A stretch of DNA of 64,000 nucleotides from Escherichia coli (GCF_003334305.1 NZ_QOWS01000017.1); one strand, 5' to 3'. Positions 28,793-47,280 are shown, counted from the first letter of the stretch. Made by a program: numbers and translations. Notes: generated from the sequence alone by a model not told the origin.

Positions 28793-28806
28793 ACCCCGTC
28801 TCCTGA

Positions 28807-29951: not shown

Positions 29952-30057
29952 CTGTTCACCTCTGTTCACCATAAGAAAAAAGATAAGTAATACAGTAAGT
30001 TAAAGGGTGAACAATCGCAGTAATGACTGTTCACCGTCTGTTCACCACTGTTCACCC
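29952..30057. repeat. P4 ori-like iteron cluster (TGTTCACC repeats, both orientations)
   Basis: At least six copies of tgttcacc or its complement within about 110 bp. Confidence 0.7.
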
Positions 30058-30335
30058 GTTGATGGGCTTTTTGTGCTGTTTATTACTGTTTGTTTTTATT
30101 AATTCGCCGGGAATGAATAAGAAAAAACGATTTGTATTTCACTATAAAAATTACGAATTGCTTTAAGTGGCTTTAAATGACTTTAAGTGGAGATGAACAA
30201 AAAACACACAAGCATTGTAAGGCTGCCGGAACAAATCCCCCCTGTTGCGTCTGCTGAAAATATTCACAAAATAAAACGCTACCCGAAGCCGGACGGACTT
30301 ATCCGGTGCTGTATGGACATTAACGAGGTAGCCCG

Positions 30336-30602
30336 ATGCAAGCTGTTTTTTCTTCCCCGTCTCCTGCCCCTGTGACGCCACTGATGCCGCTGCCGGACAT
30401 CACACAGGAGCGTTTTTTACGTCTGCCGGAAGTGATGCACCTGTGCGGCCTGTCACGCTCGACCATCTATGAACTTATCCGTAAGGGGGAATTTCCGCCG
30501 CAGGTGAGTCTTGGCGGTAAAAATGTGGCCTGGCTGCACTCTGAAGTCACCGCATGGATGGCCGGGCGCATTGCCGGACGCAAACGGGGGTACGACGCAT
30601 GA
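30336..30602 (+). CDS. AlpA/Vis-family small DNA-binding regulator
   Basis: 88-aa ORF; …[34 protein letters not shown]… is the AlpA-type HTH. Confidence 0.65.
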
Positions 30603-30991
30603 TGATGCCCGCTCTGCAAAAAGTCCCTTTTTCTGGCTTGCCTTTTTCCGGCATTTGCGGATATAGTTTTTCCGTTGCCGCAAAATCGGCAGCCGGGCGT
30701 GAGAACCCGTGTAACTCGAAGGCGACATATGACGCGCCATGCGTCTTTTTTTGTGTCGCAATCAACGCCACAGAGCGCCAGATTATGGTGTGGCGTGTGG
30801 TTTGCCGTGCAGGTATGATCCTGTTCGCAATCGCATGTTATGCCACTGAGTCAATGGTAGCTCAGGCGGGGCAGCCTCCGGGCTGGCCGGTATTCTTCGA
30901 GGCCGGTATTCTCACCCCCGTCTGGGCTATCGCCATCGAGCGTGAGAACTCCGGCGATAGCAGTTATTTGCTACTCGAAGGAGGCTGCCTT

Positions 30992-31189
30992 ATGGCTACA
31001 ACCCTTACCCCCTCACACCCTGAATTTGTCTTTGTGTTTGCGGCTGTCCGTCGCGCAGACCGTCATCCCCGTATCTGCATGCTTCGCACCGTCGCCGGTG
31101 ATGAACGCAGCGCCCGCCGTTCCCTTGTCCGTGACTATGTGCTCTCCCTTGCTGCCCGTCTGCCGGTGGTGGAGGTGTCCCGTGCGTAA
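30992..31189 (+). CDS. small hypothetical protein of the satellite early operon
   Basis: 65 codons from an ATG with a strong upstream aaggagg RBS, inside the longer ORF 30554-31189. Confidence 0.35.
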
Positions 31190-31469
31190 TAAAAAAGCCC
31201 CTCAGACCGTCTCAGCACGTCATGACGCCCGTGAACACCTCAGCATTGAGGCTTACCATAAGCTCAACCGCGCCAGCTCCGTATCCCAGTTTGTTGGGGG
31301 TGATTTGATTCACCGTGAACTCTCCGGCCTGCATCAGCTCTACATTCCGCATATTTTCAGCTACCTGAATGAAGATATTGATTTTGTGCTGAATGAGCTG
31401 AAAGCCAAAGGCCTGTGCCGCGATTTTCTCGCCCAGCAGAAAGACCGGGGAGACAGGACGCATGTTTGA
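31182..31469 (+). CDS. small early-operon protein, 95 aa from a GTG start (possible P4 epsilon-like anti-repressor)
   Basis: Tail of ORF 30942-31469; GTG preceded by ggagg; the size matches my recollection of P4 epsilon, but the assignment is not verified. Confidence 0.3.
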
Positions 31470-31917
31470 TTTTCCCCAGCCCGGTGAGATTTACCGTTCT
31501 GCCGGTTTTCCCGATGTGGCCGTGGTCGGCATTCTGGAAGACGGTATTCCGTGGGAAATGCCGTACCGCTGCCCGGACATTGTCTGGAACCCGTACCGCC
31601 GTAAATTCAGTATCCTTGTGCGTATCCTCGCTGACGGACGCACCACAGACATCCCGCTGGGGCGTTTTCTGCGGGAATTTACCTGTGACCGTCCTGACCT
31701 GTTTAAACGCAGCCCCGTAAACCGGCATGCGGTACTGAAAGAAATGGCCGGAGACCCGGAATTACAGAAATGGCGGGAAAAATATCTGGATATTTACCCG
31801 CAGGCCCCTGTTCCGGTCAGCCGGGCGGCACCGGTGGCGCGGGAATGGCGGGAAATTCCCCGCACGGAGCCTGACCCGGAAATCACCCCGGATAACAGTT
31901 ACCGCAATTATCTGTAA
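31462..31917 (+). CDS. P4 orf151-like hypothetical protein
   Basis: 151-aa ORF in the position and of the size of P4 orf151, upstream of alpha. Confidence 0.5.
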   Translation: MFDFPQPGEIYRSAGFPDVAVVGILEDGIPWEMPYRCPDIVWNPYRRKFSILVRILADGRTTDIPLGRFLREFTCDRPDLFKRSPVNRHAVLKEMAGDPELQKWREKYLDIYPQAPVPVSRAAPVAREWREIPRTEPDPEITPDNSYRNYL

Positions 31918-32052
31918 TTAAAAAACGACACCCGAAAAATTAAATGTGCGTATTCGCGCAGGGATACGCACGTCTTCAGGAGACGCAGATATGCCTTATC
32001 AGTTAATGCAACCGGCACGGAATGCAGTCATCTGTCACAGGGAGGAAAGCAA

Positions 32053-32373
32053 ATGAAAACCCCCTTACCGCCCGTCTTACGCGCAGCCCTTTACCGTCGC
32101 GCTGTCGCCTGTGCCTGGCTGACCGTGTGCGAACGTCAGCACCGCTACCCGCATCTCACCCTTGAATCACTGGAGGCGGCCATCGCCGCTGAGCTGGAAG
32201 GCTTTTATCTGCGCCAGCACGGTGAGGAAAAAGGGCGTCAGATAGCCTGTGCCCTGCTGGAAGATTTAATGGAATCCGGCCCCCTGAAGGCCGCGCCGTC
32301 GCTGTCCTTTCTCGGGCTGGTTGTGATGGATGAACTCTGTGCCCGTCACATAAAAGCGCCGGTACTGCACTGA
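32053..32373 (+). CDS. P4 orf106-like hypothetical protein
   Basis: 106-aa ORF immediately upstream of alpha. Confidence 0.5.
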
Positions 32374-32387
32374 AGGAGAACAACACC

Positions 32388-34721
32388 ATGAAAATGAACG
32401 TAACCGCCACCGTCAGCCATGCACTCGGCCACTGGCCGCGTATTCTCCCGGCGCTGGGGATTCAGGTGCTGAAAAACCGTCATCAGCCCTGTCCGGTCTG
32501 TGGCGGGAGTGACCGCTTCCGTTTTGATGACAGGGAGGGGCGCGGCACCTGGTACTGCAATCAGTGTGGTGCCGGTGACGGCCTGAAACTGGTTGAAAAG
32601 GTGTTTGGTGTTTCCCCGTCCGACGCGGCCGCAAAGGTGGCTGCCGTGACCGGCAGCCTGCCACCGGCTGACCCGGCAGTGACGGCCGCCGCCGTTGCTG
32701 AAACAGACGCTGCCCGGAAGAACGCCGCCACACTGGCACAAACCCTGATGGCGAAAACCCGTACCGGAACCGGTAACGCCTACCTGACCCGCAAGGGCTT
32801 TCCCGGCCGGGAATGCCGGATGCTGACCGGCACACACAGAGCCGGTGGCGTGAGCTGGCGCGCCGGTGACCTTGTGGTGCCACTGTATGACGACAGCGGC
32901 GAACTGGTTAACCTTCAGTTAATCAGTGCTGACGGCCGTAAGCGCACCCTGAAAGGCGGACAGGTCAGGGGCACCTGTCACACCCTTGAAGGACAGAATC
33001 AGGCCGGAAAACGTCTGTGGATAGCGGAGGGATACGCGACCGCACTTACCGTACATCACCTGACCGGTGAAACGGTGATGGTGGCGCTTTCTTCCGTGAA
33101 CCTCCTTTCTCTGGCCAGCCTTGCCCGGCAGAAGCATCCGGCCTGTCAGATTGTCCTTGCCGCAGACCGTGACCTCAGCGGTGACGGCCAGAAAAAAGCC
33201 GCCGCAGCCGCAGATGCGTGTGAGGGCGTTGTTGCCCTGCCGCCGGTCTTCGGTGACTGGAATGATGCCTTCACGCAGTACGGCGGGGAGGCCACCCGTA
33301 AGGCCATTTACGATGCCATCCGGCCACCGGCTGAAAGCCCGTTCGACACCATGAGCGAAGCAGAGTTTTCCGCCATGAGTACCAGCGAAAAGGCCATGCG
33401 TATCTATGAGCATTACGGTGAGGCGCTCGCGGTCGATGCCAACGGCCAGCTTCTGTCTCGCTATGAAAATGGTGTCTGGAAGGTGCTGCCGCCACAGGAC
33501 TTTGCCCGGGATGTGGCCGGGCTGTTTCAGCGTCTGCGCGCGCCGTTCTCCTCCGGGAAGGTGGCCTCCGTGGTGGACACCCTGAAGCTGATTATTCCGC
33601 AGCAGGAAGCCCCCTCCCGCCGCCTGATTGGCTTTCGTAACGGTGTGCTCGACACACAGAACGGCACGTTCCACCCGCACAGTCCGTCACACTGGATGCG
33701 CACCCTGTGCGATGTGGATTTCACCCCGCCGGTGGACGGTGAAACGCTGGAGACCCACGCCCCCGCGTTCTGGCGCTGGCTTGACCGTGCCGCCGGTGGC
33801 CGTGCGGAAAAACGCGACGTGATTCTGGCCGCACTGTTTATGGTGCTGGCAAACCGCTATGACTGGCAGCTCTTTCTGGAGGTGACCGGTCCCGGCGGCA
33901 GCGGCAAAAGTATCATGGCCGAAATAGCCACCCTGCTGGCCGGGGAGGATAACGCCACGTCGGCCACCATTGAGACGCTGGAATCCCCGCGTGAACGTGC
34001 CGCGTTAACTGGCTTCTCACTGATACGCCTGCCGGACCAGGAAAAATGGAGCGGCGACGGTGCCGGACTCAAGGCCATCACCGGCGGCGATGCGGTGTCC
34101 GTTGACCCGAAATACCGGGATGCATACTCCACGCATATCCCGGCGGTGATTCTGGCCGTGAACAATAACCCGATGCGCTTCACCGACCGCAGCGGCGGCG
34201 TGTCACGCCGGCGGGTGATTATTCACTTCCCGGAACAGATAGCCCCGCAGGAGCGCGACCCGCAGCTTAAGGACAAAATCACCCGCGAGCTGGCGGTCAT
34301 CGTGCGTCACCTGATGCAGAAGTTCAGCGACCCGATGCTCGCCCGGTCACTGCTTCAGTCCCAGCAGAACTCAGACGAGGCGCTGAACATCAAACGGGAT
34401 GCCGACCCGACGTTTGATTTTATCGGCTATCTGGAAACCCTGCCGCAGACCAGCGGCATGTATATGGGGAACGCCAGTATCATCCCGCGTAATTACCGTA
34501 AATACCTCTATCACGCCTATCTGGCCTACATGGAGGCAAACGGCTACCGGAATGTACTCAGTCTGAAAATGTTCGGGCTGGGGCTGCCGGTGATGCTGAA
34601 GGAATACGGACTGAATTACGAGAAGCGCCATACCAAACAGGGGATACAGACCAACCTGACGCTGAAAGAGGAAAGCTACGGCGACTGGCTGCCAAAATGT
34701 GACGACCCTGCAACAACCTGA
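32388..34721 (+). CDS. P4 alpha primase-helicase (zinc-finger primase, P-loop helicase, C-terminal iteron-binding domain)
   Basis: 777-aa ORF; N-terminal CPVCGG…CNQCG zinc motif; Walker A GPGGSGKS in the central region. Confidence 0.9.
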   Translation: MKMNVTATVSHALGHWPRILPALGIQVLKNRHQPCPVCGGSDRFRFDDREGRGTWYCNQCGAGDGLKLVEKVFGVSPSDAAAKVAAVTGSLPPADPAVTAAAVAETDAARKNAATLAQTLMAKTRTGTGNAYLTRKGFPGRECRMLTGTHRAGGVSWRAGDLVVPLYDDSGELVNLQLISADGRKRTLKGGQVRGTCHTLEGQNQAGKRLWIAEGYATALTVHHLTGETVMVALSSVNLLSLASLARQKHPACQIVLAADRDLSGDGQKKAAAAADACEGVVALPPVFGDWNDAFTQYGGEATRKAIYDAIRPPAESPFDTMSEAEFSAMSTSEKAMRIYEHYGEALAVDANGQLLSRYENGVWKVLPPQDFARDVAGLFQRLRAPFSSGKVASVVDTLKLIIPQQEAPSRRLIGFRNGVLDTQNGTFHPHSPSHWMRTLCDVDFTPPVDGETLETHAPAFWRWLDRAAGGRAEKRDVILAALFMVLANRYDWQLFLEVTGPGGSGKSIMAEIATLLAGEDNATSATIETLESPRERAALTGFSLIRLPDQEKWSGDGAGLKAITGGDAVSVDPKYRDAYSTHIPAVILAVNNNPMRFTDRSGGVSRRRVIIHFPEQIAPQERDPQLKDKITRELAVIVRHLMQKFSDPMLARSLLQSQQNSDEALNIKRDADPTFDFIGYLETLPQTSGMYMGNASIIPRNYRKYLYHAYLAYMEANGYRNVLSLKMFGLGLPVMLKEYGLNYEKRHTKQGIQTNLTLKEESYGDWLPKCDDPATT

Positions 34722-34765
34722 CCCACCTGACCGGCATCTGCCGGTCTTTTTTTATCCCTGAATTC

Positions 34766-35070
34766 CCCGAAGGTGAACAATCCACTGTTCACCCTTCACC
34801 GTATATTCACCCGTTATCACACTGAAATTAAAAGAGAAAAACGAAAGGTGAACAGTGTGAACAATCAAATCAAAAAAAACTTTTTTCTTCCTGAGTGATT
34901 TCAGCACGGGAAATTAATCCCCTGCACAAGTCACACCGGCAGAATGCCGGAGGTGAAGAATCGAATGTTCACCCTTCACCCATTATTCACCACCTATCCA
35001 ACTGAAATAAAAGGAGAAAACAGAAAGGTGAACAGTGTGAACAGTTCTTTCGAAAAAAAATTTTTTTCTT
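34766..35070. repeat. P4 crr-like region: two tandem repeats of about 120-125 bp, each carrying TGTTCACC-type iterons
   Basis: Near-identical units beginning ccgaaggtgaacaatccactgttcaccc… and ccggaggtgaagaatcgaatgttcaccc…. Confidence 0.7.
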
Positions 35071-35185
35071 ATTTTTAATTGTGCGAAAAACAAGCGACAC
35101 ACGCAGTGTGTATAGATATGTGTATAGTTATATTTTTTGAATATTATAATGTATTACAAATCAATGTGTTAGCTTGTAATATTCA

Positions 35186-35205
35186 CTCCTATTATCGGCA
35201 CCATC
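35186..35205. repeat. att core, copy 2 (attR of the P4-like satellite and left boundary of element 2)
   Basis: Exact 20-bp copy of the thrW 3' end. Confidence 0.8.
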
Positions 35206-35808
35206 AAGAAAATCAATAACTTAGCTTAACTTCTCTAAGAAATTGTATCTTCTGTTATCACTTACAAACGCCTATACGTTGTTATGGGCTTTGGTAGTGT
35301 AACACGTATGGGCGAGTAGTTCCCAGGCTCAACCTCGTAACAAGTTCCTTTGAAGCTGGAAGACGTGCCACCGTCTCTAAACCTTCTACCAAAACTCTTA
35401 GCAAGATGTTCCACACCTGGCGCGGTGTCCAATGATGCTACACGTCGTGAGACGTTGCAGAGGATAAACAGGCTAAATGATGGGAAGAGTTTTAAGTGCA
35501 ATAGTGGATTAAAGCCCACCTCTTCAAAACCTAACTTGATCGGGAAAGAATCAAGCTCTAGCACGGTTTCGTCCACCGGAGTACAACGGGTGCCTGATAA
35601 GAGAAGAACTGCTAAGACTTCATAGCTTTTGTGAAAAAGCCCTTTTTAGTGGATACGCCTACGGCGCTTATTTTTTGGTATAACCATCAAAGGCGCTTTA
35701 TGGCTCCTATTGTCTTGAAAATGTATCTTTACTTGTATTGTGTTTTATGCGTAGTCTCCCTGTGTAGTATGTAACTTGTTAATTTTCATATGAATACAGA
35801 GGCACACG

Positions 35809-35967
35809 ATGAAAAACATTGCAGCTATCAAACGGAATAACCGCAAGATTCACGCTCGTAAGTTCCTGTCTACGCCAGAAGGAAAAGCCTGGCTAGAGCG
35901 TAAACAGAGAGAAAACGAAGAAAGAAAACTCCTTAGTGAGTTGAAATGGCTTAGAGAGGATTTCTGA
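35809..35967 (+). CDS. small basic hypothetical protein (52 aa), below the ORF-track size cutoff
   Basis: ATG preceded by an agagg RBS; translation MKNIAAIKRNNRKIHARKFL…. Confidence 0.3.
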   Translation: MKNIAAIKRNNRKIHARKFLSTPEGKAWLERKQRENEERKLLSELKWLREDF

Positions 35968-36310
35968 AAATCTCCAGAACGCAACAGGACGCATTCTAAC
36001 GCTGTTTTCATTACTCGGTATAGGGATTATAGGTGATGTGTGTTTAATGCGTCTGTGAGCTTGTTTTGTGCCTTATTTTGCATTTTCATAATGCAGGAGA
36101 GAACACGGAAAGCCTTAAAATTAATTATTGGGGTATTTAAGGCTATTTTTAGGTTATTTAAGGGTATTAAACTTGATTTAATTGATTGAAATATAAACAG
36201 ATAATTATGTATCTTATTGATTTATAAGGTTATTTTTAAATAAAGGTAAATAAAAAATAAATAGCCATAAATAGCTATAAATACATCTAAATACCTATAT
36301 CCCTTCCCTT

Positions 36311-36694
36311 ATGGCTAGATTGCGAGAAGTGCTTAACGCGATTTTCAGCGCCCCCCGATCTGGAAAATCCAGAATCCCCAAATATCAGCAAGGAATTTTC
36401 TTGCGTAATCAACATCGTTTTTACCTATTAAATCATTACACAGAAAGCCTTTCTGTAATGTCTCTCACTAAACTTTCACTAAACACGAGAATGATCGGTT
36501 TTATGTCGGATCAGATGCTAGAAATAGCACCACGTCTCACAAGGGCTGTAAGCGATGAAACCAGTGTTTATGCGGGTGCAGGTCAAAATATAGGCCAAAA
36601 TACATTTAACATAATAAACGTAATATGCACTAAGGAACACATAGAACGCCTTGAGTTGATGTATCAGGGGAAAAGTGGTGGATTTTTTACGTAG
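36311..36694 (+). CDS. hypothetical protein
   Basis: 127-aa ORF in an AT-rich region; no recognisable motif. Confidence 0.25.
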   Translation: MARLREVLNAIFSAPRSGKSRIPKYQQGIFLRNQHRFYLLNHYTESLSVMSLTKLSLNTRMIGFMSDQMLEIAPRLTRAVSDETSVYAGAGQNIGQNTFNIINVICTKEHIERLELMYQGKSGGFFT

Positions 36695-36720
36695 GAGCAC
36701 GAGAGGGCTTCTATTGACTT

Positions 36721-36999
36721 TTGTATGCTATGAAATATAATAGAAGGTTTTTTTATGTTGATAGTGATTGCACATTAAAGATTGAAAGCAAATTTAAACA
36801 TAAATTTTCAACACGTGAAAGAGAACTTGTTCGACAAATGATAAAACGTTTATTGAGCAACAATTTTGCAGTGATGCGCTATATGCCGAATTACACAAGG
36901 CTTTGCGAAAGTGATGTAAAAGTGAAGAAAGTAAGAATTGCAACTTTAAGCTACTTTTCATTGAATTTTTTAGTATGGAATTACACAGGAATAAGTTAG
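36721..36999 (+). CDS. hypothetical protein
   Basis: 92-aa ORF; no recognisable motif. Confidence 0.25.
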   Translation: MYAMKYNRRFFYVDSDCTLKIESKFKHKFSTRERELVRQMIKRLLSNNFAVMRYMPNYTRLCESDVKVKKVRIATLSYFSLNFLVWNYTGIS

Positions 37000-37085
37000 G
37001 GATATTCTATGATTTACACAGGGAATATAGGGGGATTATGGCACACACATAGAAAGACATTACACAAAGTGCTATGTGACAAATG

Positions 37086-37303
37086 GATGTAACGAGAGGT
37101 TACATTCAGCTATCTGAAATGCTCTCTGTAAGAAAGTTGGTAGTAACGATATGTTACATAGACTAATTATTGAATGTAACGATATTACACATCGGTAGTA
37201 ACGATACGTTACATCGACTAATTATTGAATGTAACGATATTACACATCGGTAGTAACGATACGTTACATCGACAGATGATTGGATGTAACGAAAGGTTAC
37301 ACA
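37086..37303. repeat. iteron/operator array: seven GTAACG-N4-5-GTTAC-type palindromic sites, including two perfect 57-bp tandem units
   Basis: Units ggtagtaacgata(c/t)gttacat…gaatgtaacgatattacacatc repeated head-to-tail; an AT-rich stretch follows at about 37310-37390. Confidence 0.7.
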
Positions 37304-38398
37304 ATAAGACTATATTATTTATAATACTAAATAAAACTATATTAGATTATTAATTAGATCATAATAATATTCTTTATATCTATATATATGATCTTTTGCC
37401 TTCCGGCGTTAGCTTCACTCCCTGGCAAGCAGCCTTACTCCGCTACCTTTCGGGCTACGTTGGCTGGCCCGTTCCGCTCACACCGAAAGCAAAGCGTTAC
37501 TTTCTTCGTGTAACTATCGTGGCGGTAACGCCCACGAAGAAATACTATTGCGCTGTGCGCAGAAGAGTAATCACCTAACCAATCATAGATTGCTTATGTG
37601 TTAACTCTCTCTACCTCTTAATTCCACTTCCTACATTTAATAACTCTGTTATTCTCTGTAGTTGTGTAATTACTCGAAGAGAGAGCGGCTAAAGCTCAAT
37701 TACACTCTGCTTTCCTCGTGTAAGTTCACTAAGCCTCAATACAATTTCACTTCCTACATTCTGTAGTCGTGTAATTGTTTTCGGTGGAAAAGCCAGAGGC
37801 GACACCGAAAGAGAATTCTGATCTTATTAATCTTATCTATCTTAGTTAATCTTCTTACTTTATCTACTTTATTATTAATAATAGCTTTATAAGCTCTGTG
37901 TAGCTCTCTGACGCAAGAAACAGCATTCAGGAAGGGAATCACCTTAGAAAAGGTGTTCTTTGCGTCATAATGTGTTTTATGAAGGATTCAGAGGTGTTTC
38001 ATAACAGGAATGTATAGAGGATATTTTAATTAATTAAAAATAAGGGGTCTAAATGCTTCTCTAACAACATTAAGCAGGGTAGGGAATGGAAACGCATTGC
38101 CTACATATAATAAGCTCACTACAGGGCTTTACAGAGCGTTTTATAAAGTGACTCTCTGTTTTATATTTACCATTACCTTTTCATATACCTAACAAATACA
38201 AAATAAGCCCCTTCAATAAGCCTCTGGCGAGCGAAACAGCCATTAGATAAGGGAATGTATTGCTTTTATCAAAATCTCGTCAGAATGCGATTGAGAGTGT
38301 TTTAGCGGATAATGAAGAATAGCACTACATAGAAGAGCACGAATTGTTAAGCAAAATCATAACATACTGAAAAAGATCAGTTTTTTTGTGAAAAGGTA

Positions 38399-38427
38399 TT
38401 GACAAACGTCTCTTTCTGTGCAATAAT
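38399..38427 (+). promoter_or_regulatory. sigma70-like promoter (TTGACA, 17-bp spacer, TGcAATAAT extended -10)
   Basis: Read directly from sequence; about 130 nt upstream of the 38555 ORF. Confidence 0.5.
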
Positions 38428-38554
38428 AGGTATTAGAGGGGACAGGAATAGATTCTTATCCTCTAAATAATTAAACCAATGCACCGCACTTTGAAGCCCA
38501 AGAGGCTTGCAAGGTGTTTTTTCTTTTAACCAAATCGAATAAGGAGGCTAATTA

Positions 38555-38731
38555 ATGAAATATTTCACTCCACAGGATGTAGTAGAAGCCTGGAAACGTG
38601 GTGAGATCAACCGCTTTAAAGTAAGGATGTATAGAAACACCGCTCGCCGTTGTGGTTATCCAGAGCGTGAAAAATGTTTTGACGATGCACTGAAAATTAT
38701 TGATGAACTGCGTAAAGCTGAGAAAGAATAA
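38555..38731 (+). CDS. small hypothetical protein (58 aa)
   Basis: ATG with a strong aaggagg RBS; first gene after the promoter. Confidence 0.45.
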   Translation: MKYFTPQDVVEAWKRGEINRFKVRMYRNTARRCGYPEREKCFDDALKIIDELRKAEKE

Positions 38732-38753
38732 TAGACAAGAGAAGGAGAAAACT

Positions 38754-38921
38754 ATGAGCGAAACTAAGAAACCAATTCCGCGCACTTACCTTCACGTTGA
38801 CCCTGAAATCTTCAAGGTTTTATTTGCTGAAGCCAAGAAAAGGCAAATTATGGTCAGTGATTTGATGTTAGAAATCATTACTGAAGCAGCAGAGAACATC
38901 AAACAAAAAAAGGGTAAGTGA
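38754..38921 (+). CDS. ribbon-helix-helix (CopG/Arc-like) DNA-binding protein
   Basis: 55 aa; …RTYLHVDPEIFKVLFAEAKKRQIMVSDLMLEII… fits a beta-strand then two helices (RHH). Confidence 0.5.
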   Translation: MSETKKPIPRTYLHVDPEIFKVLFAEAKKRQIMVSDLMLEIITEAAENIKQKKGK

Positions 38922-38974
38922 TCCTCATTCACTTTAGTAGCGCATTAAGCGTGATTTATAAGGAGATGATTCTA

Positions 38975-39718
38975 ATGTCTAAAATTAAATTGATTCGTGA
39001 AAAATACCAGTATGTTGATAAACAAACAGGAGAAATTAAAGACCGAACTTTGAATATACCGCATTACTTTTGTGAGATTGAATTTATCTACTCCTCAAGT
39101 GTTGATGGTGGAAAAGTTAAGTTTAGTGCAGAAATGCAAAAATTATATTGCTATGTTTCAGATTGGGAGAAATCAGGGGGGATATGTTTTGAAACACAAA
39201 CGAAGTTAAGTAAAGTTTGTGGCTGTAGCCGTAAGACAGTTAATGAACTGATTGGTCTTATGATTAAAATCGGTCTTTTAGAAGAGGTCGGAGAACGAAT
39301 TCCAAAACGTCCTTTAAAATTACGTGCGCTACCTCTCACAGATGCACATATTACTCCCCCAGGAGAATCATCACTCTCTGATCTTTCTGAGGCAGAAGAA
39401 GCACAGGAACAACCTAAAGGCCATAAACAGCCTTCTTTTGATGTTCTTGATGATTGGGATGCGCCTTTACCGTGGGAGACGGAAGAAACACCTGTTTCAT
39501 CAAGTGAAAAGGTAGCTAATGATAATGAGGAGGATGTATTAGAGAATTTTGCCTCTCTTATCATCCAGGAGAAACACACAAGAACAGGAGGAGCATCATT
39601 TATTGAGTTTGCAAATTCACTAGCTTATAGATACGGGCTAAAACGACCAAATGGTATTGAGGCATATTTTTCTAAGAATTACCCAAATGTATATGATGAA
39701 TTTGATATTCCCTTTTAA
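38975..39718 (+). CDS. helix-turn-helix protein with acidic C-terminal half (candidate replication initiator or regulator)
   Basis: ORF 38918-39718; start placed at the ATG after an aaggag RBS; winged-helix-like segment …TQTKLSKVCGCSRKTVNELIGLMIKIGLLEE…. Confidence 0.5.
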   Translation: MSKIKLIREKYQYVDKQTGEIKDRTLNIPHYFCEIEFIYSSSVDGGKVKFSAEMQKLYCYVSDWEKSGGICFETQTKLSKVCGCSRKTVNELIGLMIKIGLLEEVGERIPKRPLKLRALPLTDAHITPPGESSLSDLSEAEEAQEQPKGHKQPSFDVLDDWDAPLPWETEETPVSSSEKVANDNEEDVLENFASLIIQEKHTRTGGASFIEFANSLAYRYGLKRPNGIEAYFSKNYPNVYDEFDIPF

Positions 39719-40141
39719 TAAGGAGGACTATGATTCAATATTTAGTAAAAAAATCAAGTAGACAGAATTCAGTGTAATGACACAGGAAAACGCATCTACG
39801 AAACACTTGCTTACCTCTATAAAGGAAAGCCAACACCGCTAAAATATAGCGATGTGTTACATCGAGCAGGGTGCTCTGAAGCTGGTTTAAAATTCTGGCT
39901 GAAACAGCTATCAAATTTCGGTGTTATTGAAATGAAAGAGCTGTCTTTTTCTACATTCAATCTCAAAAGATTAGATAAAGAAATAGAATTCATCTATTCC
40001 ACTCTCTAAAATCTCTCTATGTAATTAAAATATAAAAGGAAAACATTATTATGATAGTAGCTATGTATTGGTTATTGTTCTTTCTCACGTTAGAAGCATA
40101 CTTTGGGGTGTTTTCCTTTAAAAGAAAAGGAAAAGTAAATA

Positions 40142-40558
40142 ATGGCAAAAAGAAAAAACAACGTTGTTAAGAAAATCGGTGATTCAGCTTCTCTTCTAAG
40201 TAAACCTAAACCTAAATCTATTCTAAGACGTAAAGACTTTAAAGAGCTAGTTACGCTCACCAAGCAAAATAGCGCCCCTGGCGAATGGAAAACAGAGATC
40301 ATAGAACATTCTCCCTCTGTGCCTTGTGGAGATGAATTTAACGCCTTGCAAGAAATCTTATCTTCAACACCTGGCGTATTCTGGAAACCTAGAAAAAGAA
40401 AAGAGTATATCGTTGATAGCTCTGATTTACGCAAATACCAGATTTTAGGATTTGAAGATTATAACCACTACGTCGGTTATCTCGCCACCAATGGCCTAAA
40501 TAATTTAGTTCCTGAATTCCAAATTTTAGATAATGCTGATCACTATGGAGACTTTTAA
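40142..40558 (+). CDS. hypothetical protein with basic N-terminus
   Basis: 138-aa ORF. Confidence 0.45.
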   Translation: MAKRKNNVVKKIGDSASLLSKPKPKSILRRKDFKELVTLTKQNSAPGEWKTEIIEHSPSVPCGDEFNALQEILSSTPGVFWKPRKRKEYIVDSSDLRKYQILGFEDYNHYVGYLATNGLNNLVPEFQILDNADHYGDF

Positions 40559-40559
40559 T

Positions 40560-40898
40560 ATGAACAAAAACACGTATGACACAATTTATTCACTAATTAA
40601 TTATTATGAGGATGATTACCTCCTGCCTTTAAACCGCGCTGAACTTGAAGCATACAAAGAAAACACGCCAGGGGCGCTAAATGAGGCGTTTAAACACTGG
40701 GATTTAGCTGTGAATGCCTTTGAGCACCTTTCTAAAAGAGTAGAGATGCTCTGTAAGCGTGAAAACGCATACCTGACAGCCGATCAGATATGGGAGCTAT
40801 CAAACTGGATAGAAGATATTGAATCTGATGTTCGCTATGTAGGGGATGGCCTGGTTGAATTAGCTCAACGCTTAGGCGCTACTATCACAGAAGAATAA
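40560..40898 (+). CDS. hypothetical protein
   Basis: 112 aa from an ATG overlapping the upstream stop (taATG). Confidence 0.45.
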   Translation: MNKNTYDTIYSLINYYEDDYLLPLNRAELEAYKENTPGALNEAFKHWDLAVNAFEHLSKRVEMLCKRENAYLTADQIWELSNWIEDIESDVRYVGDGLVELAQRLGATITEE

Positions 40899-40927
40899 AA
40901 AAAGCAACAAAAAAGTTGTAAAATATC

Positions 40928-40959
40928 TTGACATTCCATCTATTGTATGTTAATATAAT
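40928..40959 (+). promoter_or_regulatory. strong sigma70-like promoter (TTGACA, 17-bp spacer, TAATAT)
   Basis: Read directly from sequence; followed by about 290 nt of structured leader before the 41248 ORF. Confidence 0.5.
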
Positions 40960-41247
40960 TATATAGGGGTGATTATTTTTCCTTTATTGGTTCGATATTA
41001 AAAATTCTTCCTGTCATTAAAGGGGAGTAAAATCTCCGCTCCCCGCTTCTCCTCCTTAAGTAAATACTGTGTCATTATACCTCTTTTTTCCTTTGTTATG
41101 CATACATCTTGGAGTATGCATAACATAGGGTAATTACATAGGTATGAGTTAATAAAAGGCGGCTCTAAATGCTGCCTTTTATTTTGCCCGTTATGCAACT
41201 TAAAAGTTGTATTTCTTACTTTAAAAAAGGTAACAAGGTTTATATAA

Positions 41248-41460
41248 ATGTTGTTTTTAAACGATAAAGAGCAAATCATCAAGTATAAAGATGAAATGCT
41301 GAAAATTAATCCACAAATTACCGAAATGGTAGCTAAATACGCTGGGTGTTCTGTCGAGGAAGTAGAAAGATGTGTTGAAAAATATTTTTCTCCTTCTACT
41401 CCGTCTACACCTTCCCTTAATGAATTAATCAAATTAAAAGCTAAGGAGATTACTAAATGA
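41248..41460 (+). CDS. hypothetical small protein
   Basis: 70-aa ORF; stop overlaps the next start. Confidence 0.4.
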   Translation: MLFLNDKEQIIKYKDEMLKINPQITEMVAKYAGCSVEEVERCVEKYFSPSTPSTPSLNELIKLKAKEITK

Positions 41461-41819
41461 TTATTGATTTAGACACTCTGTTTCCAGTTAGAAAGACTTT
41501 CACAGATATTGTAAGTTATTGTACTGATCCGTTTGCCTCTGTAGAAAGCAAGGTTTTTGCTTCTCTTCCTGCTGATGTTGAGTGCGGCGACTTGATCACC
41601 AGTACTGGCGCTAAATATGAATCAGGAGATGATATCTATGTTGTTATGAGTGAATTTGTAACGGCTGGAGAAAACAAGCCTGTAGATGTGCTACGTAGTA
41701 ATGCTGGTCTTGTCTGCATCAAAGCTGATGCGCTGAATGCTGTAAGTGAAGCAGCAAAAACAGCATTAATTAAAAAAGGCTTCCAGCTTGAAGGGTTCCA
41801 TTCTGTTTTCACTTCTTAA
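41457..41819 (+). CDS. hypothetical protein upstream of the capsid-like gene (possible decoration or scaffold-like)
   Basis: 120-aa ORF, translationally coupled; functional guess from position only. Confidence 0.45.
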   Translation: MIIDLDTLFPVRKTFTDIVSYCTDPFASVESKVFASLPADVECGDLITSTGAKYESGDDIYVVMSEFVTAGENKPVDVLRSNAGLVCIKADALNAVSEAAKTALIKKGFQLEGFHSVFTS

Positions 41820-41837
41820 TAAAAGGAATAATAATAA

Positions 41838-42869
41838 ATGATTCTAGGTAATGATTACGTTGATTTAGCTCCGCTTTTCCAGGCACACAGCACTAGAAAC
41901 TTTCTGCTCTCTACCCTCGACTTCACTGATCCGGTGGGCGTTAGTTCTCATAAAGTAGCTGTTTCTCAGCTTGTCGAAAGCAACGAATCTCTGTTCAACA
42001 AAGAAACCTCTCGTTTCTCTTCTGAACACAATGTTACTAAGCGTGAACAAGGTAAAGAATGGCTGATTGAAATCCCGTATTTTCTTCGTGAAGATGTGAT
42101 CCGTCCTTCTGATGTTCAAGGCAAGCGTAAGCCTGGCACTGATTTTCAGGAAACACTCACTGATATCTATGCGGAATATATCGCTAAACACCACGTAGCG
42201 TATCAGCGTACAAAAGAGAGCGTGTTGGCTGCATCTCTGTTTAGCGGTAAAACTTACACGCCTAAAACTGATGATGTTCTTATCGAGTGGGGCAAGCTGT
42301 TTAACGTGGCACCTATGAAAGCCACCTTGAACGCTTCCAGCACTGACACAATGACCGTTTTCAAGCAATTTGACCAGCTTGCTACGGATATGATTGCTAA
42401 GGCACAAAACCAGGCTGCAACCATTGAGCGTGTTGTTGTGTTCTGTAAACCTGCGGCATTCAACGCTATTCGTTACAGTGTTGGTATGGTCAATGCTTTC
42501 CAATATGCAAGCCCTGTAGACGATGCCAACGTGGTGTTTAATGTGCGTTCCCTGCTACCAGGTGTAACTACTTTCACCATTCCAGGAACTAACATTGACC
42601 TGATCAAAGTGACTGATCCGCTACACCTTGCACATATGGCTTCTGATGCGGTTGCTGTGCCTAAATTCGCTAAGGGGGCAGGTGTTTACCAATCTATCTA
42701 TGGGGCAGCTTCCAGCACCTTTGAACTGATCAATGCCGCTCCTGCTGAGGTGTATAGCTATAGCTATGAATCTTCTTCTCGTGGTGATGCTGTTAACGTT
42801 GTTACAGAGAATAGCCAGATGGTGGTAAACCACGGCGTTGGTTTCTCCGTTCAAATCACTGTTAAATAA
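41838..42869 (+). CDS. phage major capsid protein candidate (lambda gpE-like family)
   Basis: 343-aa ORF (lambda E is about 341 aa); several segments, including the C-terminal …GFSVQITVK, resemble my recollection of lambda E; not verified by search. Confidence 0.5.
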   Translation: MILGNDYVDLAPLFQAHSTRNFLLSTLDFTDPVGVSSHKVAVSQLVESNESLFNKETSRFSSEHNVTKREQGKEWLIEIPYFLREDVIRPSDVQGKRKPGTDFQETLTDIYAEYIAKHHVAYQRTKESVLAASLFSGKTYTPKTDDVLIEWGKLFNVAPMKATLNASSTDTMTVFKQFDQLATDMIAKAQNQAATIERVVVFCKPAAFNAIRYSVGMVNAFQYASPVDDANVVFNVRSLLPGVTTFTIPGTNIDLIKVTDPLHLAHMASDAVAVPKFAKGAGVYQSIYGAASSTFELINAAPAEVYSYSYESSSRGDAVNVVTENSQMVVNHGVGFSVQITVK

Positions 42870-42955
42870 TATTTTAACGTGTAATAGAGGCGTGGCGTGA
42901 ATAACACGCTTCGCCTTTTTTTATTTATTTTTAAATTTTGAGAGGTGATTAAAAT

Positions 42956-43159
42956 ATGGAAGTGATTCTGAAATCAAAAAATGGTGTACACGTTTATTTA
43001 GATGCTAATGATTCAAGAGGCTTGTTAAATCTGAAATATCTATGTTCTCTCTTGGATGTTCCATATGAAGGCGTAAAAGCCCGAATGTTCAGATTAAACG
43101 AGAGTATTGATCAAGCTCTACACCATTTCTTAAGCAAAGAAGGTGGTAAAAATGATTAA
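42956..43159 (+). CDS. hypothetical small protein
   Basis: 67-aa ORF. Confidence 0.35.
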   Translation: MEVILKSKNGVHVYLDANDSRGLLNLKYLCSLLDVPYEGVKARMFRLNESIDQALHHFLSKEGGKND

Positions 43160-43173
43160 TAAGGGGATTTTAA

Positions 43174-45012
43174 ATGTTAGAAATTAACACTTCTAAAATT
43201 AAGAACACAGTAACATTTAGTGTAGATAAAGACAGCTTGAAAAAAGCGAAAGACTCTATTACAGGCTTAAAGGAATTCACAGAAAACATCAAGCCAGCTA
43301 AATTAAGGTTTGATAGTGTCACTAAAGGCTATAAGAAAGCACAAAGCGAAGTAGACAAGATTGCTCAACAGAAAGCTAAAACAGAAAAGCAGAATCAAAG
43401 AGCACAAGCTGCCGCAGCAAGAGCACAGGCAAGGCAACAGACACAAATAGCAGCACGTAAAGAGAAAGCAGAATTAAAGCTCCTCGATGTGTCAAGCTCT
43501 ATCAGTGCAATGCACCGCCTCTCTGTAGCGGAACAATACAAAGCTATTGCACAGGCTAGAGAGATAGCAAAACAATATGAGCAAGGGGCTATCTCGCTTG
43601 CACGTATGAATAGTCAGATGAAACGCCTACAACAGCAACAACGTAAGATTAATGGCAACAGAAAAGCTCAATTAGCCCCCGTTAAGGGAGGAGGATCAGG
43701 GAATTCCGCCACGATGGGTGCTCTGTTATTTGGAGGCGCTACAGCGGCTGCTGGCGTGATGGCTGTTAGTAAAGCGTCGGAGTTTGTTAGTAACAGTTTC
43801 GCTAACGCAGAGACACAAGGTGAGCTAATTCAACGTGCAAGGCTTGGCGGTGTAGACGTTAACCAGATGTACAACATTACAGAATGGGCCTATAGAAACG
43901 GCGTTGACTCTATGATGGGTGATCAAGGGGCTAGGAAATACCTGGATCAGATGAAAGATGTTAGGGAACGTGCCGCAAAATCCTATAGTGAAGCTGAATA
44001 TGTAGTCGATAAAAAAACTGGTAAAGGCGGCGAATGGAAAGGCGGTGATAACGCTATTAATGAACTTCTAAACATCGGTGTTATTAACAAGAGCGACCTT
44101 AAAAAATTTGCTGATAATCCAGCCGGATTAATTTCTAAGGCTGTTAATGGAATGATGAAAAAAGGGTTTTCAGACTCCCAAATTGGACAACGTTTAGAAG
44201 ACCTGGGTGATGATTTGATGCTTACATCAAAATATTGGCAACGTTCCGTTAAAGATGTACAAACAAGCATCGAGCAGCAAAAAGCCTCTGGAAAATGGCT
44301 AACAGAAACACAGCAAGATTCTATTGTTAAATTCAGAGAACTAAACAGACAGCTTTCACAGCTTTCTGATGCAAGACAAGTAGCATTTGTAGACGGCTTT
44401 ATGAAATCTCTCGATCCAAAAGTAACGGAAGAGTTTATGAAAAACCTTTCTAATCTCACTCCGTATTTTACAAAGCTGGGAGAAGCTACAGGAAGTCTCT
44501 TTGAAGCTATTATGAAGATTGTAAACTGGTTTAATCGTAATGATGATAAGACAGATGCTATTCAGAAAAATTTAGGTGATGCACCGCCATTAAGCAATGA
44601 AGGAATGAAACAGAATCTTTCTAATCTCGTTCCTGATCAATATAAAGGCGCTGGCACCGGAACAACTAAGCCAGATAACAGCAATTCCCTGTTTAACACT
44701 ATTAAGGGATTGCTTTTCGATGATAAGTCTTCTTCTGTGTCAGATGTAAAAATGTCAGTCAGCGAAGCACCGATAACCAATCTCAAACAGGGCGCTTTAA
44801 ATAATCTTGCAATGACAACTCCGGCTTATAATTTATCTCCTGTGTTTAATCTGAATCCTACATTTGAAGTGGTAACAGAGGTTCCTCTTACTATTAATTC
44901 TGACACATCAAGATTAAGCGATTATGTGGATTTTACAGCGAGATCAAGTCGGGATAGCTTCTTGAAATCATTAACATTAACCAGCTTATCAGGACAATCT
45001 AACGGCGGGTAA
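43174..45012 (+). CDS. large coiled-coil protein with a Gly/Ala-rich hydrophobic segment (tape-measure-, pilot- or ejection-like)
   Basis: 612 aa; K/Q/A-rich predicted coiled coil in the N-terminal 170 aa; GGGSGNSATMGALLFGGATAAAGVMAV segment. Confidence 0.55.
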   Translation: MLEINTSKIKNTVTFSVDKDSLKKAKDSITGLKEFTENIKPAKLRFDSVTKGYKKAQSEVDKIAQQKAKTEKQNQRAQAAAARAQARQQTQIAARKEKAELKLLDVSSSISAMHRLSVAEQYKAIAQAREIAKQYEQGAISLARMNSQMKRLQQQQRKINGNRKAQLAPVKGGGSGNSATMGALLFGGATAAAGVMAVSKASEFVSNSFANAETQGELIQRARLGGVDVNQMYNITEWAYRNGVDSMMGDQGARKYLDQMKDVRERAAKSYSEAEYVVDKKTGKGGEWKGGDNAINELLNIGVINKSDLKKFADNPAGLISKAVNGMMKKGFSDSQIGQRLEDLGDDLMLTSKYWQRSVKDVQTSIEQQKASGKWLTETQQDSIVKFRELNRQLSQLSDARQVAFVDGFMKSLDPKVTEEFMKNLSNLTPYFTKLGEATGSLFEAIMKIVNWFNRNDDKTDAIQKNLGDAPPLSNEGMKQNLSNLVPDQYKGAGTGTTKPDNSNSLFNTIKGLLFDDKSSSVSDVKMSVSEAPITNLKQGALNNLAMTTPAYNLSPVFNLNPTFEVVTEVPLTINSDTSRLSDYVDFTARSSRDSFLKSLTLTSLSGQSNGG

Positions 45013-45046
45013 TTCCCGCCATAACATTACAAGGAAAATTATTATT

Positions 45047-45760
45047 ATGGCGACCGCCGGGATTTTAACCATACGTGCAGCAAATACTCCAGAACAACAC
45101 GTTCAGGCTGTTTACAAAGCAGAACAAGATATAAATTCTACAAAAAACGAAAATAGCAAAGCTAATAAAACAAAAGGAGAGAACGGATTTGCTATTGTTA
45201 CCAGTGGCTTGGCATCTTCTGGCAATGACGTTTATGAAAATTATATGGCCCTGGCCTTTGACAGTGTAGACGATGTGAACGTGAGACGTTCGGCAGATGT
45301 CACAAGCTACCCCGTAGAAAATGGTGCTACTGTGTCTGATCACGTTCAAATTAAAAACAATAAGTTTTCTCTTAAAGGAAGGATCACTGAAACACCGATT
45401 AAAAGCGATCCTGGCTTGTTAAAGAGTGCAGGGGTGAACGGGAACAGAAGATCATTAGCCATAGACTACTTGAATCAGATTATGGACAGTAGACAGCCTT
45501 TTCTTCTTGTTACAGAAAATAAAACTTTTGAGAACGTTGTTTTAACAGGCATCGAATACACAGAAGAGGCAAGCGAATCCCTGGTATTTGATCTTAGCTT
45601 TGAGCAGATCAGATTAGTTTCTTATGGCACTGTATCCACTATTGCACTTAAAACACAACCATCTAAGAACATCGGGGCGAATATGAAAAAACGTGTTAAC
45701 ACTGAAAAATCAAGTAGTGAAGGTGAAGACACTATTACTCCTGCCTTTAAGCAGAAATAG
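45047..45760 (+). CDS. hypothetical protein (possible virion structural protein)
   Basis: 237-aa ORF. Confidence 0.5.
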   Translation: MATAGILTIRAANTPEQHVQAVYKAEQDINSTKNENSKANKTKGENGFAIVTSGLASSGNDVYENYMALAFDSVDDVNVRRSADVTSYPVENGATVSDHVQIKNNKFSLKGRITETPIKSDPGLLKSAGVNGNRRSLAIDYLNQIMDSRQPFLLVTENKTFENVVLTGIEYTEEASESLVFDLSFEQIRLVSYGTVSTIALKTQPSKNIGANMKKRVNTEKSSSEGEDTITPAFKQK

Positions 45761-45801
45761 CCGTAAACGCCTCTAAAACGCTCTGTAACGATGTAATTAT
45801 A

Positions 45802-45838
45802 AAAGAGGCTGCCAATCTATGTTGAAGCCTCTTTATTG
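45802..45838. terminator. bidirectional intrinsic terminator between the structural-like genes and the convergent integrase
   Basis: Stem aaagaggct / agcctcttt with flanking A/T runs. Confidence 0.55.
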
Positions 45839-45841
45839 TGT

Positions 45842-47206
45842 TTATGGCGTTGTTTTACGCCTTAAATTTGATTTTTTATTGATTGATAAGCCTTTCTCTA
45901 TTTCAGGGTAGCGTAGAAGCTCAATATAGTTTTTAAGCTCTACTGGAGAAGCTGCATTCTTGCTATATGTGCGGAATGTCTCTGTATTGCCGCGTGTATG
46001 GCCCAGGAGAAGGGCGATCCTGTCTTCTGGAATTTGATTTCGATCAAGAAGCTGTGCTACTCCGTGTCTCAGAGAATGAAACACTTTCCTTTCTGTTCCC
46101 TTTTCCCCTAAAGCCTTTCGTTTAGCTCTTGTAAATCTCTGCGTGTGCCACGTGGAACGTTTACCATCAGCACGCTCTGTAATGCTGGCGTGATAGAACA
46201 AAAAGCCATTATGAGGCTTTTCACGCAGCGACAACACCAACGGAGTGATAAGGCTATGTACAGGCACAACACGTGCCGCAGCTTTCGTTTTTCCCTGTGT
46301 GATTTCAAAACACAGCACACCTTCGATCTCTTTCACATCGTCTATTGTGAGACTTGCTATCTCATTGATCCGCATACCTGTATATAAACCGATAAGACAC
46401 AAAGCCATCATTTCTTTGTTTTCTGCTGAATTACCGGAAAATACTTGCAACACCTGCAATAGCTCTTTGTTAGAAAATGCCTCGTAGCTCTCTCTACTTT
46501 GTGCCACATCAAGCCTATGCCCTCGCCAGGGGGAGAGCGCCCTTTCTGGCGCATCGTGGTAACGTGATGAAGCTAACTCCCATAGCTGGGCTATTGGGCT
46601 GATATAATTTGCAATTGATTGTTGTGAAAGAGTTTTTTGCATGTGTTCTATCCAGCCTGTAACAGTGGTGCGGCTCACATCTTGCAATGCAATATCAGGC
46701 TTTTTACGGTAGGAGAGAAACATCTCTACCGCTTTTCTTGCCTTAGCTAAAGTGGCTGGCTTCTTCTTCGTGCTGTTAATTGTCAGGTAGATTTCAAGAA
46801 TTTTAAGCAATGACGGACACGAAGACGCTGTATCTTGCATTCTGGTAGCTGTTTTGGCGTATTTAGCCTTACTGCGTAACAGCTCCAGCGTGTTCTCTAT
46901 TGTGCTGTTTACAGGGGCGACACTCTCCCGTAGGCAATGGTATTCATCTGCAATCTGATCACGCTTTCTACGTGCAACACGAAGATTATTTGTGTGTAGA
47001 CTTCTGACAAACGTCCTTTTTCCTTCAAAAAAGGGCTGCATATACACAGGCAGCGTGATCCTTAAATAGTAGTTACCGTAAGAATCACAGATTAAGTATT
47101 GGTTAGGCTTGTATCTCATAAAATCTCCGGCTAAAGTGTCGGAGCGTTTGTAATGTGAAAATTGATTGTAACGCATAGAAAATGATAATTTTTCTATAAG
47201 ATTCAA
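45842..47206 (-). CDS. tyrosine integrase (intF-position integrase)
   Basis: 454-aa ORF; catalytic signature …GMRINE…HSLRHG…GHTRGNTETFRTYSK; sits beside the degenerate att copy. Confidence 0.85.
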   Translation of the reverse strand: MNLIEKLSFSMRYNQFSHYKRSDTLAGDFMRYKPNQYLICDSYGNYYLRITLPVYMQPFFEGKRTFVRSLHTNNLRVARRKRDQIADEYHCLRESVAPVNSTIENTLELLRSKAKYAKTATRMQDTASSCPSLLKILEIYLTINSTKKKPATLAKARKAVEMFLSYRKKPDIALQDVSRTTVTGWIEHMQKTLSQQSIANYISPIAQLWELASSRYHDAPERALSPWRGHRLDVAQSRESYEAFSNKELLQVLQVFSGNSAENKEMMALCLIGLYTGMRINEIASLTIDDVKEIEGVLCFEITQGKTKAAARVVPVHSLITPLVLSLREKPHNGFLFYHASITERADGKRSTWHTQRFTRAKRKALGEKGTERKVFHSLRHGVAQLLDRNQIPEDRIALLLGHTRGNTETFRTYSKNAASPVELKNYIELLRYPEIEKGLSINKKSNLRRKTTP

Positions 47207-47260
47207 TCAATTAGTAATGGTCGTAGGTGATGGCATTAACACGAGATTAATCGAGTGTTT

Positions 47261-47280
47261 TACTCCTATTATCGCACCAT
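47261..47280. repeat. att core, copy 3 (degenerate, 19/20): actcctattatcgcaccatt
   Basis: One-base deletion relative to copies 1 and 2. Confidence 0.6.

Follow-up and report, generated by a model that had tools for sequence, protein, structure and literature searches.

A 12-kb element at thrW in Escherichia coli resembles the PLEs and is a probable satellite of lytic Stephanstirmvirinae phages

To our knowledge, the only source of detailed knowledge on satellites of strictly lytic phages is the PLE/ICP1 system of Vibrio cholerae. Here we describe a 12-kb element from a 64,000-nt stretch of Escherichia coli DNA (GCF_003334305.1 NZ_QOWS01000017.1), hereafter the window, along which all coordinates are counted. 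The element spans positions 35206–47261 (12,056 bp, att to att); this copy is designated A7, after its strain label, and is 100% identical to NZ_CP028767.1. Based on sequence comparisons, the element is likely an integrative satellite of the lytic, ~146–150 kb Stephanstirmvirinae that package DNA with direct terminal repeats (DTRs), a group that includes phi92 (Justusliebigvirus) and phAPEC8 (Phapecoctavirus). It very probably belongs to a satellite family not previously described, with three independent comparative links to this one phage group; in full-text literature, drawn mostly from outside subscription journals, we found no description of Stephanstirmvirinae satellites or of this element. 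A broader proposal, which we put forward with somewhat less confidence, is that this is the first PLE-like satellite in Enterobacterales: a widespread ~11–13 kb family with its own capsid and tail core (a tape measure with or without a tube initiator), mimicked DTR-boundary packaging, and an arms race with origin-directed nucleases that arose independently of the ICP1 nuclease Odn.

By analogy, the element appears to work most like a PLE, yet it does not belong to the PLEs. Every PLE codes for an alternative tape measure protein (TMP), tail assembly chaperone, and baseplate hub, giving rise to chimeric tails (PMC11838301). PLEs share with the element an association with a lytic myovirus helper, an initiator of their own together with semi-palindromic iterons, the exchange of replicon modules between variants, and a TMP and a baseplate-proximal protein related to those of the helper, with 19–41% identity in PLE and 28–61% in the element. 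However, PLE encodes a large serine recombinase and a RepA_N initiator, whereas the element encodes a tyrosine integrase and an HTH_36 replication initiator (Rep); PLE resizes the helper coat with an external scaffold (TcaP), whereas the element has a gene for a major capsid protein (MCP) of its own; and the element, unlike PLE, has an Enterobacterales host and a predicted helper with short direct terminal repeats. Our searches, which included no direct comparison with PLE proteins, turned up no sequence homology to PLE.

Three other satellite types share individual features with the element. The capsid-forming phage-inducible chromosomal islands (cf-PICIs) are likewise integrative satellites with their own HK97-fold capsid protein, but they encode a full head and packaging set (MCP, portal, protease/scaffold, connectors, and small terminase) of which the element possesses the MCP alone, together with a probable decoration protein, and they take only tails, from temperate helpers, whereas the element adds tail-core genes and would use lytic helpers. 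P4-like satellites resemble the element in size (~12 kb), in integration at a tRNA gene, and, as predicted for the element, in independent replication and in carrying a copy of a helper packaging sequence; the cos site of P4 matches that of P2. Their helpers are P2-like temperate phages, in contrast to the predicted lytic DTR helpers and own virion proteins of the element, and their characteristic psu, delta, sid, alpha, and cos are all missing from 35206–47261, the four genes being found in a neighboring satellite at 23361–35184. Finally, the EPIPs of Mycolicibacterium are reported to encode an MCP and a TMP and to have altered capsid size and tail length (preprint 10.64898/2025.12.02.691453). 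As satellites with both proteins they are similar to the element, as compared by description only, homology not being expected; they additionally encode a small terminase, head-tail adaptor, stopper, scaffold, and serine integrase, and their helper is a temperate actinobacterial siphovirus.

The nearest relatives of the element's TMP and tail-tube initiator all occur in ~146–150 kb lytic myoviruses of the subfamily Stephanstirmvirinae. An initial annotation of the window had listed a block of 120-, 343-, 67-, 612-, and 237-aa products, an order that we recover (Table 1), and had reported no tail genes, which is incorrect because the 612-aa product is the TMP and the 237-aa product is the tube initiator. 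The TMP is 56% identical to that of the phage over its first 66 aa and ~28% identical over the remainder, and it is the shorter of the two (612 vs 659 aa). The tube initiator is 56–61% identical to Stephanstirmvirinae proteins and also matches the "tube initiator" chains 9cuy_K and Pam3 gp17.

The 343-aa protein is a capsid protein, as had been suggested, but its kinship to lambda E is remote, extending only to the same Pfam family, and its nearest relatives are the capsids of Pakpunavirus and Stephanstirmvirinae. It is 19% identical to the MCP of the putative helper phage alia, which the MCP family profile matches at 1.2e-15, and its closest solved relative is the capsid of Pakpunavirus P7-1 (1e-9). 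Pakpunavirus and Stephanstirmvirinae capsids form one clade (PMC12846349), within which the element MCP is an old, separate lineage. The local gene order (decoration–MCP and TMP–initiator) is as in the helper, phage alia having a head-decoration gene at the matching position upstream of its MCP. The 120-aa protein is thereby a probable head-decoration protein; the folds that best match its AlphaFold model (pLDDT 69.5) belong to small accessory chains in the capsids of Sf14 and PhiTE (probabilities 0.92–0.98 and 0.60, with TM-scores of just 0.4–0.47), while comparison of sequence profiles with the helper decoration protein gives no support (hhalign probability 0.6%; hmmsearch E 2.8).

Portal, terminase, protease, sheath, tube, and lysis genes were found neither in this copy nor in the Klebsiella, Enterobacter, and Sodalis relatives in searches with PHROGs, Pfam, and PGAP, in agreement with the initial annotation as to terminase, portal, protease, and lysis. 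An element that encodes its own capsid protein, tail-length determinant, replicon, and integrase might be taken for an autonomous minimal virus, or for a producer of particles akin to gene transfer agents, that needs no helper. We regard this as extremely improbable, as portal, terminase, sheath, tube, baseplate, and lysis genes occur in no family member and a TMP and tube initiator would be useless without the tail parts of a helper.

When the gene-poor left arm was searched at the DNA level with high sensitivity, a 46-bp core (36314–36359) was identified that is 93.5% identical to ~55 Stephanstirmvirinae genomes, with weaker similarity around it reaching ~100 bp. The match in phi92 covers nt 318–363, and the annotated DTR of that phage is nt 1–343; the core therefore spans the boundary between repeat and unique sequence (343|344). 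A DTR of 342 bp was determined by PhageTerm in the phi92 relative BME3 (PMC12210895). Elements from Enterobacter and Klebsiella contain the motif at the equivalent position, and its invariant parts are GTGCT|TAACG, which holds the DTR boundary, and AAATATC, ~45 nt away. The core of the E. coli element matches the E. coli phage at 45/52 positions and the elements of other genera at 34–36/52, and the latter are nearest a Klebsiella phage (36–40/52), so that the motif covaries with the phage of the same host and not with elements elsewhere. The pac-like segment occurs as a single copy per genome in 427 E. coli genomes, in 413 of which it is at least 95% identical, a conservation far above that of the whole element. 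The 46-bp core is likely a mimic of the recognition or cleavage site of the helper terminase.

Genes of the element also recur in phages, as part of what appear to be weapons against it. Phage inny contains 625 bp that are 97.6% identical to the element's gene for a 55-aa protein resembling ribbon-helix-helix (RHH) regulators and the first ~130 codons of rep. The resulting inny_184 protein (367 aa) consists of the winged helix-turn-helix (wHTH) domain of the element Rep, a second Rep-like wHTH, and a C-terminal nuclease of the MUG113/T5orf172 type. Over residues 1–145 it shares 88% identity with A7 Rep (97.6% in nucleotide sequence), and its nuclease matches the phrog_681 endonucleases (3.9e-18) and, by tblastn, putative homing endonucleases of the T5 type. 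The same RHH-like gene is found in phage muut, and the second wHTH and nuclease of muut_154 are 92% identical to those of inny_184; the N-terminal wHTH of muut_154 differs from that of inny_184, being 96–97% identical in nucleotide sequence to a third Rep allele (found, for example, in strain MLI104K2). The cassette is found in few phages and is absent from this locus in phage alia. In both inny and muut the RHH-like gene was captured along with the Rep domain, and the phage may use it to silence satellite promoters.

Odn, from ICP1, is a fusion of a PLE RepA-like domain and a T5orf172 nuclease, and it cleaves the iterons of PLE (PMC8263062). Both inny_184 and muut_154 are likewise phage-borne chimeras, with a satellite-initiator domain at the N-terminus and a T5orf172/GIY-YIG-type domain at the C-terminus, and thus have the architecture of Odn; by analogy, their target is apparently the satellite origin. 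Odn has 42% amino acid identity to its satellite, whereas the phage chimera described here is ~97% identical to the element gene at the nucleotide level, indicating that the capture in inny and muut is much more recent. Unlike Odn, the chimera contains an extra second wHTH and has the captured RHH-like gene beside it.

The predicted target of these nucleases is itself variable. The iterons proposed in the initial annotation hold up, their 7-mers being far more frequent than expected (ATGTAAC, 10 copies vs 0.9 expected; GTAACGA, 7 vs 0.5), and they are followed by an AT-rich stretch (37298–37344). Rep matches phage O and DnaD-like PHROGs, as well as HTH_36. Comparison of A7 with the copy in strain APEC O1 shows replacement of exactly two internal segments, one being the iteron block and the other the N-terminal domain of Rep; the iteron block of APEC O1 consists of 22-bp TAGGTCAYWGTGAGCTAGGGGG repeats, and the C-terminal half of its Rep is ~95% identical to that of A7. 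The Rep DNA-binding domain and the iterons behave as a cognate pair, being swapped together as if pressed to change specificity.

Could the element instead be a defense island that does not transfer, its capsid protein, TMP, and tube initiator poisoning Stephanstirmvirinae virion assembly without transduction? Satellite-type interference and defense often coincide, and tail-assembly interference is a known defense strategy (PMC11364771); Rta of PLE11 targets the tape measure of ICP1 (PMC11838301), and the helper-like N-terminus of the element TMP would let it enter helper tails. However, a constrained copy of the DTR boundary, an iteron replicon with swapping modules, and a complete MCP with a decoration-like partner would all be superfluous for a pure defense island, and a phage nuclease aimed at Rep sites implies that replication of the element matters. 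Interference is also compatible with a satellite and not an alternative to it. We therefore consider a solely defensive role unlikely.

The element is widely distributed and well preserved. Of 5,426 complete E. coli genomes, 227 carry at least 80% of it, for the most part at 90–95% identity. In APEC O1 and strain C6 it stands directly against thrW, without the P4-like neighbor, and the MCP family is found across Enterobacterales. Relatives in Klebsiella, Enterobacter, and Sodalis share the order of small ORFs, Rep, proteins of ~130 aa and ~112 aa, a gap, proteins of ~70 aa and ~120 aa, MCP, a ~62-aa protein, a TMP of 615–650 aa, and a distal integrase. In the comparison of the A7, APEC O1, and C6 copies, each of the 12 genes tested was intact, dN/dS being 0.02–0.17, and the RHH-like protein has dN = 0 between diverged copies. 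These values indicate that the element is likely functional under purifying selection and not decaying.

The initial annotation had left the choice between a capsid-encoding satellite and a deeply reduced prophage. The first of these is strongly supported, and the second is disfavored, since the element has strictly lytic relatives and shows no decay of its genes. A decaying remnant similar to the cryptic prophage CP4-6, keeping a few structural genes, would account for the location, since the thrW island region is the place of CP4-6 in K-12 and its integrase is also distal, for the degraded state of some copies (IS insertions or a frameshifted integrase), and for the missing start codon of a 92-aa wHTH gene in A7. 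On the other hand, the same compact gene set is kept in four other genera, its members remain intact in diverged copies, and the phages to which the element's structural genes are related are strictly lytic, a type that leaves no prophages. When the element was compared with K-12 positions 288000–298500 (yagJ–yagN and intF), neither tblastn nor blastn gave a match, and as the distal genes of CP4-6 show no protein or DNA similarity to it, the element is not a CP4-6 remnant. The initial annotation had named CP4-6 homology, or assignment of the 343-aa and 612-aa proteins to non-virion families, as outcomes contrary to its proposal; neither was observed, both proteins belonging to virion families. 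We judge a prophage remnant to be very improbable.

Several observations weigh against a satellite of Stephanstirmvirinae. Metagenome contigs of 9.6–12.3 kb are, where flanks are present, fragments of integrated copies and not excised forms, and the matches in IMG/VR are provirus predictions from isolate genomes, which are not evidence of packaging. The element MCP is just 19% identical to that of the helper, and it may not fit the portal, scaffold, and protease of the helper. Neither an excisionase nor a factor that senses the helper was identified. The mimicry covers a single DTR boundary, as no copy of the left DTR boundary of phi92 was found in the element, whereas both genome ends would have to be made. 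The tube initiator, present in E. coli and Sodalis, is absent from the Klebsiella and Enterobacter copies and is thus not essential to the family. The Pfam scores of the phage nuclease are modest (MUG113, 5.4e-4; T5orf172, 0.13), though its PHROG endonuclease match stands at 3.9e-18.

Taken as a satellite, the element would have the following life cycle. Integrated at thrW through the action of its own tyrosine integrase, it would be excised upon helper infection and replicate from the iteron origin by means of its own wHTH initiator, a step to which the sequence of both lends support. Read-through of the promoter-leader-terminator switch would then turn on the structural operon. The satellite MCP and the probable decoration protein would presumably form small capsids sized for 12 kb, and, as in PLE and ICP1, the satellite TMP and tube initiator may seed chimeric tails from the baseplate, tube, and sheath of the helper. 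The helper terminase would recognize and cut the copied DTR-boundary site. In a counter-move like that of Odn, a helper with the chimeric nuclease, whose Rep domain is nearly identical, would cut the satellite origin, and the element would be expected to escape by exchanging Rep-domain/iteron modules between its copies.

If this is correct, an E. coli equivalent would put PLE-type biology into the most tractable host, and chimeric origin-directed nucleases would be a convergent phage counter-measure and not a peculiarity of ICP1. The pac-like core points to the terminase recognition site of Stephanstirmvirinae, and the element provides a natural test case for capsid size and for substitution of the tail core, with an MCP 19% identical to the helper's and a TMP 47 aa shorter. 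Phages similar to phi92 and phAPEC8 are candidates for therapy and biocontrol. Among complete E. coli genomes, 4% hold at least 80% of the element and 8% hold the pac-like segment; carriage at ~4–8% could affect host range, phage yield, and gene transfer in treatment.

Table 1. Features of the element and their positions in the window
Feature	Position	Strand	Remarks
attL	35185..35205	none	perfect copy of the thrW 3' 21-mer; doubles as attR of the neighboring P4-like satellite
conserved 52-aa ORF, WP_000788777	35809..35967	+	no family match in profile search
pac-like segment	36311..36411	none	core 36314–36359 identical at 43/46 positions to phi92 nt 363->318
ATTACAC(A) repeats, scattered	36435..37776	none	10 copies vs 0.9 expected; kept between copies of the element
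iterons	37084..37303	none	55-bp unit x2.8 with GTAACG-N4-GTTAC palindromes; candidate origin
non-coding block	37540..37780	none	nested inverted repeats; conserved across genera
early-operon promoter-like site	38399..38427	+	TTGACA-17-AATAAT, upstream TG
58-aa protein	38555..38731	+	allelic between copies
55-aa RHH-like protein	38754..38921	+	100% conserved between element copies; same gene in phages inny and muut
replication initiator Rep, 247 aa	38975..39718	+	N-terminal wHTH (HTH_36), aa 1–~117, allelic; C-terminal half conserved
small wHTH protein	39749..40009	+	92 aa in other copies; normal start missing in A7
138-aa protein	40142..40558	+	conserved across genera; no function assigned
112-aa acidic helical protein	40560..40898	+	conserved across genera; no function assigned
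structural-operon promoter	40928..40956	+	TTGACA-17-TAATAT, upstream TG; near-consensus sigma-70
intrinsic-terminator-like hairpin and T-tract	41156..41187	+	dG -12.5; inside the ~290-nt leader
70-aa protein	41248..41460	+	first gene of the structural operon; no function assigned
120-aa protein, probable head-decoration	41457..41819	+	directly upstream of MCP; synteny and weak fold match
major capsid protein (MCP), 343 aa	41838..42869	+	PHROG_29, 8.7e-14; homologs with Pfam PF03864 (HK97 / lambda-E family)
67-aa protein	42956..43159	+	directly upstream of the TMP gene, in tail assembly chaperone position; no function assigned
tape measure protein (TMP), 612 aa	43174..45012	+	phrog_16051, 4e-54; Phi92_gp134 in PDB 21vq, 2e-38
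tail-tube initiator, 237 aa, Dit-like	45047..45760	+	PF21821, 6.9e-29; Phi92_gp135, 3e-78
tyrosine integrase	45842..47119	-	PHROG_1, 1.5e-33; relatives of the DUF6538 + Phage_integrase type (PF00589)
attR	47262..47280	none	degenerate copy of the thrW 3' end (1-nt deletion)

The gene order in the window is proBA, thrW, a P4-like satellite, the 12-kb element, a truncated LysR gene, and paoDCBA. The 3' 21-mer of thrW, a tRNA-Thr(CGT) gene at 23283–23358, is ACTCCTATTATCGGCACCATC (23340–23360); a perfect second copy and a third copy with a 1-nt deletion flank the element as attL and attR, so the AT-rich unit delimited at 35206–47260 in the initial annotation is the att-to-att interval. Its GC content is 0.34–0.43, compared with 0.54–0.62 in both flanks. 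The element thus has defined ends and an integration module, and the distal integrase that had been noted is of the tyrosine type. This integrase has no similarity to that of the neighboring P4-like satellite in a direct comparison and is also unrelated to K-12 IntF. PGAP predicts only ~13 genes, where roughly 14 ORFs had been counted; 12–13 genes of the element are intact, and the 3.3 kb at 35.2–38.5 kb are nearly free of ORFs.

Five genera, ranging from E. coli to Sodalis, share a conserved promoter for the structural operon, and in every genus examined it is followed by a leader of 290–700 nt containing a terminator-like hairpin and T-tract. This arrangement resembles the pR'-tR' design of lambda, which suggests that the operon is controlled by antitermination. 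Two strong promoters had been claimed for the element; both are real candidates (Table 1), but promoter-like sites in total are not above chance (28 vs 34.5 expected). Within the operon, the MCP gene has dS of ~0.52 and 86–87% amino acid identity between E. coli copies. As it is far more diverged than its neighbors (dS 0.07–0.31), allelic replacement or faster turnover of the MCP is suggested.

The proteins of 58, 55 (RHH-like), 138, 112, 70, and 67 aa could not be assigned a function by PHROG, NCBIfam, PADLOC, or helper-ORF profile searches; for the small ORFs, NCBIfam and PADLOC gave no matches, and family HMMs of the small proteins run against ~110 kb of helper ORFs were significant only for the RHH-like protein, MCP, and TMP. 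The RHH label given earlier to the 55-aa protein fits its predicted strand-helix-helix pattern but has no profile support, its sole PHROG match (E 0.009) being to a family of unknown function, with no Pfam search made. Scattered ATTACAC(A) repeats in the left arm are candidate operator sites for a conserved regulator. The non-coding block at 37540–37780 is 75–77% identical to the Enterobacter and Klebsiella relatives, while its flanks are unalignable, and contains the inverted repeats TGCGC-TGT-GCGCA and GGCTAAAG...TTACAC...GTGTAA...AAGCC. It is a candidate non-coding RNA or operator array; an Rfam scan of the whole element, this block included, returned nothing credible.

The small wHTH gene that follows rep encodes 92–93 aa in APEC O1, C6, Klebsiella, and Enterobacter. 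In A7 the region is 95% conserved, but stop codons precede it and the normal start is gone, so this gene may be truncated or a pseudogene. The left arm otherwise serves as a site of variable cargo, such as a 183-aa ORF in C6, a Dam methylase in Klebsiella, and an HNH protein in Enterobacter, and in several copies it includes small recombinase or integrase-like genes (179–205 aa). The A7 left arm has none of these cargo genes.

Among database records, ~146-kb entries labeled "Campylobacter phage" (MG065639.1, MG065656.1, and similar) are near-identical to E. coli Stephanstirmvirinae in the matched regions, namely the pac-like core, tape measure, and tube initiator. They are probably mislabeled or derived from contaminant coliphages.

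The P4-like satellite (23361–35184) stands in tandem with the element at the same thrW att site, and a single attachment sequence is thus used by two unrelated satellites with unrelated integrases. It encodes an integrase, a nuclease/helicase pair, psu, delta, sid, icd-like and epsilon-like genes, and the alpha primase. Direct repeats of 120 bp at 34767–35066 belong to this neighbor and resemble the crr of P4. In its integrase-proximal hotspot a complete Gabija defense system was identified at 24694–28016 (PADLOC: GajA, 9.7e-254; GajB, 3.4e-229).

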